This document shows positions 8,198-10,846 of a DNA stretch of 11,134 bases, in pieces. Every line of letters starts with the position of its first letter. Position 1 is the stretch's first letter. The notes under the pieces were generated by a model. The model made no database searches, had not been told where the DNA came from, and saw nothing but the letters and a program-made list of their open reading frames with translations. The DNA lies in IMG/VR virus record IMGVR_UViG_2695420687_000012; one strand, given 5' to 3'. The stretch is from a virus (taxonomy: Duplodnaviria; Heunggongvirae; Uroviricota; Caudoviricetes). A program made the position numbers and the translations under genes.

Positions 8198-8199
8198 NN

Positions 8200-8263
8200 T
8201 ATGCAGAAAGCTTTAGCTCTGGAAGGGGAATTGCGCGAAAAGCTGGAACAGATGGTGAACTAA
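8200..8263 (+). CDS. fadM: Long-chain acyl-CoA thioesterase FadM, last about 20 codons only
   Basis: Frame MQKALALEGELREKLEQMVN followed by a stop (8261-8263) matches the recalled FadM C-terminus (...TQKALALEGELREKLEQMVK); convergent with queC as in E. coli. Confidence 0.6.
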
Positions 8264-8269
8264 AGGGAC

Positions 8270-8360
8270 TATGGCGCCGGATGCAGTGCTGTGGCGGCTT
8301 ATCCGGCTTACAAGCAAAATCGTAGGCCGAATAAGGTATTCGCGCCGTATCCGGCGACAC
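8270..8360. repeat. REP / BIME element (two inverted REP units)
   Basis: gcgccggatgcagtgctgtggcggcttatccggcttac and the inverted copy gtaggccgaataaggtattcgcgccgtatccggcgac, typical E. coli repetitive extragenic palindromes between convergent genes. Confidence 0.7.
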
Positions 8361-8369
8361 TCGAGATAA

Positions 8370-9065
8370 TTACTTCAATCCGGTCTTCTGTTTCATCGCC
8401 GCCATCACCGCCGGTTTATCGGCCAGATAATGATTCAACCCGTTGGCGCGTAAGTTACACGCTGCACAATGGCCGCAACCGTCGCCTTTTATGCCGTTGT
8501 AGCAGGTCAGGGTTTCGCTACGCACTAAATCCAGCTTGCCGTAATAATCCGCCAGCGCCCAGGTTTCTGCTTTATCAATCCACATCAGCGGCGTTTCAAA
8601 ACGAATATCTTTCGCCATACCCAGACTGACGGCGTGGTTCAACGCTTTCACGAATTCATCGCGGCAATCCGGGTAGCCGGAGAAATCTGTTTCGCAGACA
8701 CCGGTAATCACAGCTTCTGCCTTCACCTGATACGCATAAATTGCTGCCAGAGTCAGGAATAAAATATTGCGCCCCGGCACAAAGGTATTAGGAATTCCAT
8801 CGGCGTCGGGTTCATAATCGGGCACCGGAATACTGTCACGCGTCAGGCTGCTGACAGCCAGTTGGTTAAGCAGCGTCACATCCAGCACTTTATGCGCGCG
8901 CGCGCCCAGTTTCAGCGCCAGCTCGCGAGCGACGTCTATCTCTGCGCGATGGCGCTGACCGTAATCAAACGTCACGCAATGGACTTCATCGTATTGCTGT
9001 AATGCCTGCACCAGACATGTGGTGGAATCCTGGCCTCCACTGAACACAACGACAGCACGTTTCAT
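8370..9065 (-). CDS. queC: 7-cyano-7-deazaguanine synthase QueC
   Basis: 231-aa track [23 protein letters not shown]...[35 protein letters not shown], near-identical to recalled E. coli QueC, including the SGGxDS PP-loop and C-terminal Cys cluster. Confidence 0.9.
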
Positions 9066-9129
9066 AAATCATCCTGCTAAATCAATAAAAGCGTTATGGT
9101 AACGCTTGCGGGTAACCCCGACCAGCGCT

Positions 9130-9990
9130 TCATTGCGACGGCGCGGGAAGCCAGGCTTCGGTAAATTCAAACCAGCCACGTGGTGTCAGGCGGACACCGT
9201 TCACACCGGGCGGCGCGCTGATACGGTAATGATAGTTAAACAGCGGCGTCAGCGTGGCGTCGTCCATTAGCTGGTTAAACACCGTTTTCAGGGCGTTATG
9301 CCGGTTTTCCTCATCAGGCATAATTTGCACGGCATCCAGCGTCGATTGCAGATGCGTATATGCGCTGGCAGTGAAAACATGCGGCCACAGAGGATCACAA
9401 CGCAGCCATTGTTCAAGGGTATATTCTGGTGCCTCGCCAATCAGCCTGTCGCCCATCATCAAATCTGCCTGTGCCAGTGAAGCGGCATCGTCCCAGTTTT
9501 TCGCGTTATGAAAAATGATTTTTAGTTCACAACCTTCTGCCGCCAGTGTTGCTCGTAACTGTTCCGCCATGGCATGAAGTTCCACTGGCAGGTGATAAAC
9601 CAGTGTCAATGTTTCTGGGCGTTTGACTTCTACTGGCACTTCCCACTGTGGAATAGTCCAGCCTGGCAGCAATGCATGACTGGCGGTGATCAGATTTTCT
9701 CCGACTTCTAATGTTTGTAATAGACCGGATTGATGAATGATGGCGATCACTTTTCGCGCCTGCCAGAGAGTAAGTCTGGCGCTTTTACGTAATGTTAAAT
9801 AGCAAAACCCCAAACTAATACCGCTACTGACCGGGCTGACCATCGGTAAATCTTCAGGTTTGCCGATGGTGATTTGTACCGGATGCCGACAACTGGTACC
9901 CAAATCTTTTTCAAAAAGCGGAGGGGTTATCCAGTACTCAACCGCTTTTAGCAGCGGGTGACGTAAATGGTAATAATCATGGCTTTCCAG
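9130..9990 (-). CDS. ybaE: C-terminal about 286 codons of a YbaE / SgrR-C-like solute-binding-domain protein (5' part absent)
   Basis: C-terminal part of track ORF 9130..10509 (LESHDYYHLRHP...LTPRGWFEFTEAWLPAPSQ). The tail resembles the recalled SgrR C-terminus, and the gene sits upstream of queC as ybaE does in E. coli. Confidence 0.6.
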   Translation of the reverse strand: MESHDYYHLRHPLLKAVEYWITPPLFEKDLGTSCRHPVQITIGKPEDLPMVSPVSSGISLGFCYLTLRKSARLTLWQARKVIAIIHQSGLLQTLEVGENLITASHALLPGWTIPQWEVPVEVKRPETLTLVYHLPVELHAMAEQLRATLAAEGCELKIIFHNAKNWDDAASLAQADLMMGDRLIGEAPEYTLEQWLRCDPLWPHVFTASAYTHLQSTLDAVQIMPDEENRHNALKTVFNQLMDDATLTPLFNYHYRISAPPGVNGVRLTPRGWFEFTEAWLPAPSQ

Positions 9991-10002
9991 NCGGCNNNAN
10001 TN

Positions 10003-10503
10003 CAGTAATTTATACGGCACGCCGGCATCTTCCAGTACGGCGATATCGCGAGTGGCATTTTCATACTGTTGTTCAGTACGAAACAGTTGCAGCGTTCCGC
10101 CCTGCCGTCCTTCGTACTGAATGTTGGTTTCAGCACGTAGCGCTTTCAGACAATCACGGCTGTACTCTGCCAGGCGAACCATTCGCCCTTTGTTTTCCAT
10201 ATAGTGGCTGGTATCGCAGTTACGTAACATTTGCCACATCCATTTCAACTGAAATTGCGTGCCATCAAGACGAACAGCCAGCGGCGCATGACGTTGAAAC
10301 ATCCATTTAATCGCTTTCAGCGGCACACCTGGCGCCGCCCACGGCGCAGCATATCCAGGGGAGATTTGCCCGGCATTTGCGGCGCTGGTTTCCAGAGCAG
10401 CTCCGGGTTCCCGATCAATTACGGTAACCTCATGTCCGGCCTGATTTAAATACCAGGCGCTGGCAACGCCCACCACACCACTTCCCAGTATGACAACTCG
10501 CAT
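10003..10503 (-). CDS. dadA: D-amino acid dehydrogenase DadA, N-terminal about 167 codons only
   Basis: [167 protein letters not shown] matches recalled DadA. The true start is the ATG at 10503-10501 (the track begins two codons earlier at a GTG). Ends at the N-run 9991-10002. Confidence 0.85.
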
Positions 10504-10846
10504 AGCCACTCCGATAACGGTAGATTCAGTAAAAGAATAATAACCTAATTACATCTTGATAACTTAGATGAAAATATTATTCAACATAGAGTTTTTTATG
10601 GTGAGCTGGCTCACACCTCCCTGACGCTGCGGGAATATAGCGTCTTTAGTATCTCCTGCTAAACGCGCTTTTTATCCAGCAGAAAATTCCACTCTGGAGC
10701 GGATTATTGGCACTCCGATAATAAGAAATCGCAAAGAAAAAAATTCTCCGGCGACGCGGTTTTTAACCCGTGTTCTATGCTTGAAATGAGGTCCTCCACA
10801 CAGAGAGTACCGACAACAATGAGGTGCGCGTATGNCNNCGNTGNNN

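Follow-up and report, generated by a model that had tools for sequence, protein, structure and literature searches.

Ambiguous bases at the joins of a mosaic 11-kb viral record and a probable dadA-ybaE assembly artefact

Introduction

Chimeric contigs and misassemblies are recognised classes of assembly error (LMAS benchmark, PMC9795473), and our literature search returned general background on chimeric contigs only. The DNA analysed here, hereafter the window, is the whole 11,134-nucleotide (nt) stretch from the IMG/VR record IMGVR_UViG_2695420687_000012, assigned to the Caudoviricetes. Its list of open reading frames (ORFs) includes, at 9130..10509 on the minus strand, a frame of 459 amino acids (aa) in which the beginning of dadA is joined to the end of ybaE across a patch of ambiguous bases (N). 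A preliminary description, made from the letters alone, had considered this ORF artificial. We reach the same view from the pattern of the Ns, the intact native loci and the lack of any independent copy. On these sequence comparisons, the junctions of the window are almost certainly absent from the genome of the organism, and the dadA-ybaE frame would be an artefact rather than a gene fusion.

Results

A mosaic sequence with ambiguous bases at its joins

At least 11 fragments made up the window, a mosaic with at least 10 junctions (J1 to J10, Table 1), and the smallest fragments between junctions measured approximately 75–90 nt. The mosaic had been reported for the right flank, where it was confirmed, but it was not confined there, as the left flank and the far right end were also composed of unrelated pieces. 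No join connected natural neighbours, and gnd, dadA, ybaE, fadM, ycjX and ygcN were all truncated by junctions. Three junctions were blunt and N-free (1615/1616, 2098/2099 and approximately 2170–2174). The other seven carried patches of non-ACGT characters, located at 38–44, 2262–2265, 2916–2923, 8198–8199, 9991–10002, 10835–10846 and 11116–11120.

These patches were not clean N-runs but isolated ambiguous positions alternating with called bases, as in gNcggcNNNaNtNc. The exact non-ACGT positions were 8198–8199 at J7, 9991, 9996–9998, 10000 and 10002 at J8, and 10835, 10837–10838, 10841 and 10844–10846 at J9. The preliminary description had read both of the last two as N-runs. The rest of what it said of these joints stood, namely the in-frame join of ybaE to the first codons of dadA (approximately 170 by our comparison) and the terminase-like sequence beyond the dadA upstream region (99.6% identity, Pfam Terminase_6C). 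A homology breakpoint was located at most approximately 10 nt from each of the seven patches. Such closeness is not expected from random placement in 11 kb, and Ns were found nowhere else in the window. The interiors of the blocks showed few and evenly scattered mismatches to the nearest references, with no build-up towards the joints. Given these clean interiors, and QueC and QueD proteins identical to common Escherichia albertii forms, the Ns are not poor-quality sequence. Low-quality read ends were ruled out as their origin, the blocks being clean right up to the joints.

Two classes of identity were observed. The backbone blocks (45–1615, 8203–9990 and 10003–10834) were 87–93% identical to E. 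coli and approximately 99.5% identical to E. albertii, and being far closer to the latter they identify the backbone as E. albertii. The gnd, island and terminase blocks (1616–2098, 2924–8208 and 10847–11115) were 99.6–100% identical to E. coli genomes. The two classes correspond either to mobile DNA common to both species or to a mixed sample with a chimera between genomes.

A repeat search of the window showed all junctions to be free of repeats of 16 nt or more, the tRNA and Rfam scans of the window gave no matches and hence none at any junction, and no insertion sequence (IS) was seen at the junctions, the homology of each block to its reference locus running up to the breakpoint. The microhomology present at some joints was of 4–7 nt only (CCAG/CCAGGCG at J8, GCAGAA at J7). 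Strings of this length at several joints are what template switching leaves, and the blunt, N-free J2 and J3 are what ligation leaves. Chimeras formed in vitro by library ligation, by template switching during whole-genome amplification or by jumping polymerase chain reaction (PCR), and then faithfully assembled, would account for both; the joins would then be an artefact of real DNA. We consider this origin unlikely, as the fragments of 75–90 nt lying between two junctions need multiply chimeric molecules and no joint held a restriction site common to both parents. Ligation at restriction sites, as in chromosome conformation capture (3C/Hi-C) or clone-library joints, was ruled out on the latter observation; the AAGCTT at 8208–8213 belongs to the fadM parent only.

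The Ns follow the disagreement between parental sequences

When J7, J8 and J9 were pooled, the Ns sat where the two parental sequences differ and the called bases where they agree (Fisher p = 4.9e-6, assuming a 1-nt gap at 9991–10002 in J8; the ungapped J8 gives p = 0.012). At J8, native ybaE reads CCAG-TCGCACCAGTTC and native dadA CCAG-GCGGCTGGATTC-CAG, and the window reads CCAG-NCGGCNNNANTN-CAG. With a single 1-nt gap in ybaE the N mask fitted 12/12 positions, and out of the 924 placements of 6 Ns in 12 positions the observed mask alone is compatible with an alignment that has one gap or none. At J9, where the parents are the native ycgB start GGCGACGATCGAT and the native terminase TTCTTCGCTGCGG, the parents differ at 7/7 N positions and agree at 4/5 called positions, the rule being kept at 11/12 positions. 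In the four patches for which one parent is known, 6/8 called bases agreed with that parent (p = 0.004). These include J1, where E. albertii ygcN matches from position 45 on and both called bases in the patch agree with ygcN.

At J7 the sequence at 8198–8199 was CG in 4/4 copies of the island lying to the left and AA in fadM, so that a polymorphism among island copies was ruled out as the source of the NN. The island sequence ran 9 nt beyond the NN (TATGCAGAA), and the crossover lay in the string GCAGAA (8203–8208) common to the island and fadM. The proposal that the fadM block begins close to the end of that gene is upheld, with the last 19 codons and the stop present, but the breakpoint is located in this string and not at the NN.

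Ns that mark parental disagreement imply that data from both native loci were stacked at the joints. We think it probable that the false joins were made in silico, while the sequence record was being built. The ends of unlinked pieces would have been superposed over 2–13 nt and laid end to end, the pieces coming from an E. albertii chromosome (fadM-queC-ybaE, dadA, queD, ycjX and the adhesin) and from mobile elements (the primase island, a P2-like prophage and a gnd allele). A consensus caller would have placed an ambiguity at disagreeing columns and kept the base at agreeing ones. The ambiguities are now N and could originally have been codes of the International Union of Pure and Applied Chemistry (IUPAC). 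The dadA-ybaE ORF would then be a chance in-frame, same-strand join, for which the odds are approximately 1 in 3. For the software step we infer one of two events: overlaps were merged permissively, or the consensus was called across a chimeric read that bridged the pieces.

Several observations weigh against joins made by software. Without a gap, J8 fits at only 7/12 positions, so the plain rule of an N wherever parents differ was dropped for this joint, and the perfect fit needs the 1-nt gap. Standard scoring schemes yield a slightly different optimal alignment of J8: global or dovetail scoring reproduced the first gap and added a second, making the observed mask near-optimal but not optimal. 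The NN at 8198–8199 is only partly explained, the parents also differing at the called positions 8200 and 8202. Three junctions have no N at all. Finally, the parents of J9 agree at 4/12 bases, too few for similarity-based overlap detection. The lack of usable similarity there is a point for in-vitro chimeras, and for joins made in silico it suggests that the join was prompted by a chimeric read bridging the two pieces or by a spurious link. Against an in-vitro origin, the bases at the joint of any one chimeric molecule are definite, and Ns carrying both parents need native reads from both loci as well. The two-parent signal therefore speaks against physical chimeras as the sole cause.

Native loci are intact and the junctions are not reproduced

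The order of the fadM-REP-queC-ybaE block (REP, repetitive extragenic palindromic) had been described as native. The segment 8203–9990 was indeed colinear with fadM-queC-ybaE in 5425/5426 complete E. coli genomes, at 87% identity, and it aligned without gaps, at 99.2–99.55%, to six E. albertii-type loci (L005–L010). The exact QueC protein was present in 1007 blocks of the collection, and the order cof / ybaE (566 aa) / queC / fadM / ybaV / ppiD was found in 6/6 loci read. The arrangement ybaE-queC-fadM-ybaV-ppiD was intact in the six E. albertii-type genomes and in two Logan contigs, dadX-dadA-ycgB in E. coli and the E. albertii type strain, and cysI-cysJ-queD-ygcN in the E. albertii loci examined. 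The attribution of dadA to a different chromosomal region was borne out, the ybaE and dadA loci being unlinked and each intact in the references. The fadM-queC-ybaE and dadA blocks were each single-copy per E. coli genome (median of 1 place). In E. albertii loci (L005–L010, L013, L095–L098 and L102–L103), native ybaE, fadM, dadA/ycgB and cysJ run on beyond the points at which they break off in the window.

An exact probe over the N-free junction 1615/1616 (positions 1590–1641) had no match in the genome, viral and metagenome contig collections. A wildcard probe over J7 had none in the viral contig collection, and one over J8 had none in the metagenome and viral contig collections. Among 5.8 billion proteins none spanned both halves of the fusion, and the matches were of native YbaE type only. 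They covered 62–63% of the query, and a 378-aa protein (P0007) reached 66%. Any true fusion in the collection would have had words in common with each half and so have headed the ranking. The contigs holding a 100%-identical YbaE fragment (P0001) had the native gene order, 99.33% identity and a frameshift; on the last two grounds they were ruled out as coming from the same strain.

The absence of the N-free junction probe from three public collections, and of the fusion protein from the protein collection, would also be expected had unrelated contigs been concatenated deliberately, whether as a pseudomolecule, as a pooled record or as a synthetic test sequence, with the joints blended; that none of the joins connects natural neighbours points the same way. 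Such records usually carry fixed N spacers or linkers, not variable zones of 2–13 nt in which the called bases match both parents and one alignment takes a gap, and here three joints have no N. We regard deliberate concatenation as improbable, more so than in-vitro chimeras. What was found is what marks an assembly chimera: unlinked blocks that are continuous in the references, no repeat, IS or tRNA as mediator, ambiguity carrying two parents, and a junction that is not reproduced elsewhere.

The dadA-ybaE reading frame

The 459-aa ORF consisted of DadA residues 1 to approximately 170 (169/172 residues identical to the native protein) followed by YbaE residues approximately 282–566 (284/287 identical to native YbaE 280–566). 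The join was in frame, with the stop codon of native ybaE closing the ORF. The ORF finder chose the GTG at 10509 as start; the true start of dadA is the ATG at 10503. DadA, a D-amino-acid dehydrogenase of approximately 432 aa, has a complete FAD-dependent oxidoreductase domain. In the fusion the Pfam DAO profile (PF01266) was matched over positions 1–121 of 353 only, and the fusion is for this reason not a member of the DadA family. Neither SgrR_N nor SBP_bac_5 was detected in the fusion by Pfam at E <= 0.01. The ybaE part starts at approximately residue 282, and native homologues carry both SgrR_N (PF12793) and SBP_bac_5 (PF00496); lacking SgrR_N, the fusion falls outside the SgrR family of transcriptional regulators. 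It belongs to neither family.

A real rearrangement in one E. albertii strain, by illegitimate recombination at microhomology, would make dadA'-'ybaE a genuine gene. The short microhomology at some joints is consistent with such an event, as is an in-frame fusion with the native dadA promoter region upstream. It would however take at least 10 independent events in 11 kb, truncating housekeeping genes, to produce the window. The ambiguity calls lie exactly at the joints and follow the parental differences, the junction was in no other genome, metagenome or protein searched, and in the product two-thirds of the DAO domain would be missing, as would all of the SgrR_N domain. We judge this origin very improbable. 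The same holds for a real "junkyard" locus, in which many short pieces of chromosome and prophage would have been captured beside the primase island by repeated microhomology-mediated template switching, the Ns being unrelated consensus noise. If such a locus existed, the dadA promoter would drive expression of a DadA(1-170)-YbaE(282-566) hybrid.

Two odd ybaE products were encountered. One was a 378-aa E. coli protein with a ybaE C-terminal match and a HAD-hydrolase annotation, probably the result of read-through into cof. The other was a 487-aa, N-terminally shortened YbaE resulting from a 1-nt indel, found in two Logan assemblies (L102/L103, 5001–6464).

Features of the window

The pieces and junctions are listed in Table 1.

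Table 1. Fragments and junctions of the window, from left to right.
Feature	Position	Strand	Description
J1	38..44		N patch; a 37-nt fragment without assignment joined to the ygcN-queD-cysJ-leader block
E. albertii block	45..1615		ygcN 5' part (-), complete queD (936-1301, -), cysJ leader
J2	1615/1616		blunt, N-free joint bounding the gnd piece
gnd 3' end and ugd-gnd spacer	1616..2098	-	0 mismatches to E. coli SM107 gndA
J3	2098/2099		blunt, N-free joint bounding the gnd piece
Rhs-core-like piece	2100-~2170	+	peptide read directly from the sequence
J4	~2170-2174		no N; Rhs-core-like piece to ycjX piece
ycjX piece	2174-2261	-	88.5% to K-12; Pfam DUF463 match
J5	2262..2265		N patch; ycjX fragment to adhesin fragment; called bases GC agree with ycjX
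YadA/EhaG-like trimeric autotransporter adhesin fragment	2266..2915	-	Pfam YadA_stalk
J6	2916..2923		N patch; adhesin fragment to island slice
Integrase-island internal slice	2924..8208	+	99.9% to E. coli TUM10008 L004 9001-14285, 4 real mismatches
J7	8198..8208		NN at 8198-8199; island sequence up to 8208
fadM 3' end	8203..8263	+	last 19 codons and stop, QKALALEGELREKLEQMVN then stop; identical to native FadM C-terminus
REP-like inverted pair	8272..8359		fadM-queC spacer; native to E. albertii, gap-free colinear with L005-L010
queC	8370..9065	-	complete
ybaE 3' part	9130..10003	-	YbaE residues ~282-566; without SgrR_N DNA-binding domain
J8	9987..10003		ybaE/dadA superposition; shared CCAG, then N CGGC NNN A N T N
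dadA 5' part	9987..10503	-	codons 1-~170 of 432
dadA-ycgB intergenic region	10504..10834		ends at ycgB ATG (10832-10834)
J9	10835..10846		ycgB start superposed on terminase
P2-type terminase ATPase subunit fragment	10847..11115	-	~residues 461-550 of 588; 99.6% to L003; Pfam Terminase_6C
J10	11116..11120		N patch; terminase homology stops at 11115, joined to a 14-nt end without assignment

The left block, 45–1615, was 99.3–99.6% identical to E. albertii L095, L096 and L098, in which cysI-cysJ-queD-ygcN is intact, and 93.3% identical to E. coli. The cysJ leader stopped 2 nt before the cysJ ATG. QueD was found in its 121-aa form, common in E. albertii; the 120-aa form is on record in one metagenome contig only, and a protein look-up with the start chosen by the ORF finder (149 aa) gave no match. 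In some E. albertii (CP117580.1, locus L097, and ENA ERZ1674263 NODE_17261, locus L093) a deletion cuts ygcN after approximately 127 codons and places a 223-aa radical-SAM gene, of QueE size, and a LemA gene beside queD. The breakpoint corresponds to position 514 of the window, which carries the undeleted form of ygcN there.

Further right, the adhesin fragment contained internal repeats of approximately 290 nt and was 68–72% identical to E. coli YadA-like/ehaG genes. The ORF 2090..2809 (minus strand) was a second chimeric frame, combining YadA_stalk and DUF463/YcjX Pfam matches.

The central slice was cut mid-gene at both ends, its homology beginning at 2924 inside a gene. It contained hypothetical genes, a TOPRIM/DUF927 primase (4067–6826), a DUF2824 gene (7589–8050) and, from 8044, the first approximately 55 codons of a P22 gp7-like ejection protein (Pfam P22_gp7). 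A third chimeric frame, ORF 8044..8325 (plus strand), started with this P22 gp7-like N-terminus and continued through the fadM and REP sequences in a frame other than that of fadM. The preliminary description held that the element could not be placed in a genomic context from the window, and we agree: the slice 2924–8208 has a false join at either end, and for this reason the island is not placeable in a genome from here. Its context must come from intact copies such as the one that adjoins yicC in E. coli TUM10008 (L004, 3155–18037).

The yicC-adjacent island carries a tyrosine integrase, AntA/AntB and Ash-family genes, a gene for a 918-aa TOPRIM/DUF927 primase, DUF2824, and genes for P22 gp7/gp20/gp16-like DNA-ejection proteins. 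No capsid or tail genes were annotated in the stretch of it that was seen. This gene set is satellite-like and may merit study in an intact copy.

In the window the genes queD (936–1301) and queC (8370–9065), both involved in queuosine precursor synthesis, flank the island, through false joins only; on the E. coli map the native distance between them is approximately 2.4 Mb. Two such genes around a phage-like island could be mistaken for a phage 7-deazaguanine module, which this is not.

On the right, the segment 10003–10834 comprised the dadA 5' part and the dadA-ycgB spacer. It was 90% identical to E. coli. Among the loci compared, identity was 98.5% to the E. albertii type strain NBRC 107761 (Ns counted as mismatches) and approximately 89% to E. 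coli, E. ruysiae and other Escherichia. The terminase fragment did not qualify as a terminase gene: it is 269 nt only, with part of Terminase_6C, and the native neighbours (portal, scaffold) are absent.

Two sequences titled Enterobacter hormaechei, CP170191.1 (L015) and CP169086.1 (L017), were 89.9% identical to the window over the dadA region. The loci of E. coli and other Escherichia stand at the same level, and the sole Citrobacter locus compared is much lower (80%). Judging from these identities, the two entries may be mislabelled.

Discussion

The window matters as a case of quality control only and holds no biological meaning. The ORFs 9130..10509, 2090..2809 and 8044..8325 are not genes, and they should be kept out of protein catalogues and of readings as domain fusions. 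Beyond what had been described before, the N pattern is diagnostic in itself, and the backbone is that of E. albertii. The correspondence between Ns and parental disagreement provides a cheap flag for false joins that needs the sequence only, and scanning pipelines could use it to discard such windows.

Compared with natural fusions arising by illegitimate recombination, the dadA-ybaE join is similar in being in frame, on the same strand and behind a native promoter. It differs from them in being conserved nowhere, in having both domains truncated, and in being marked by ambiguity amid other false joins. Chimeras formed in the library, by multiple displacement amplification (MDA) or by PCR share with the window the strings of 4–7 nt at some joints and the head-to-tail arrangement of unrelated fragments, but their junction bases are unambiguous, whereas the joint columns of the window hold both parental signals. 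The overlaps in the window are far below any de Bruijn k-mer, unlike those of the misjoins produced by repeat collapse in modern short-read assemblies. As in chimeric contigs, the blocks of the window map to distant loci and break in the middle of genes without the signature of a mobile element, the ambiguity is confined to the breakpoints, and spurious fusion ORFs result. The window differs from typical chimeric contigs by its unusually high density of joins, with at least 10 in 11 kb and pieces down to approximately 75 nt.

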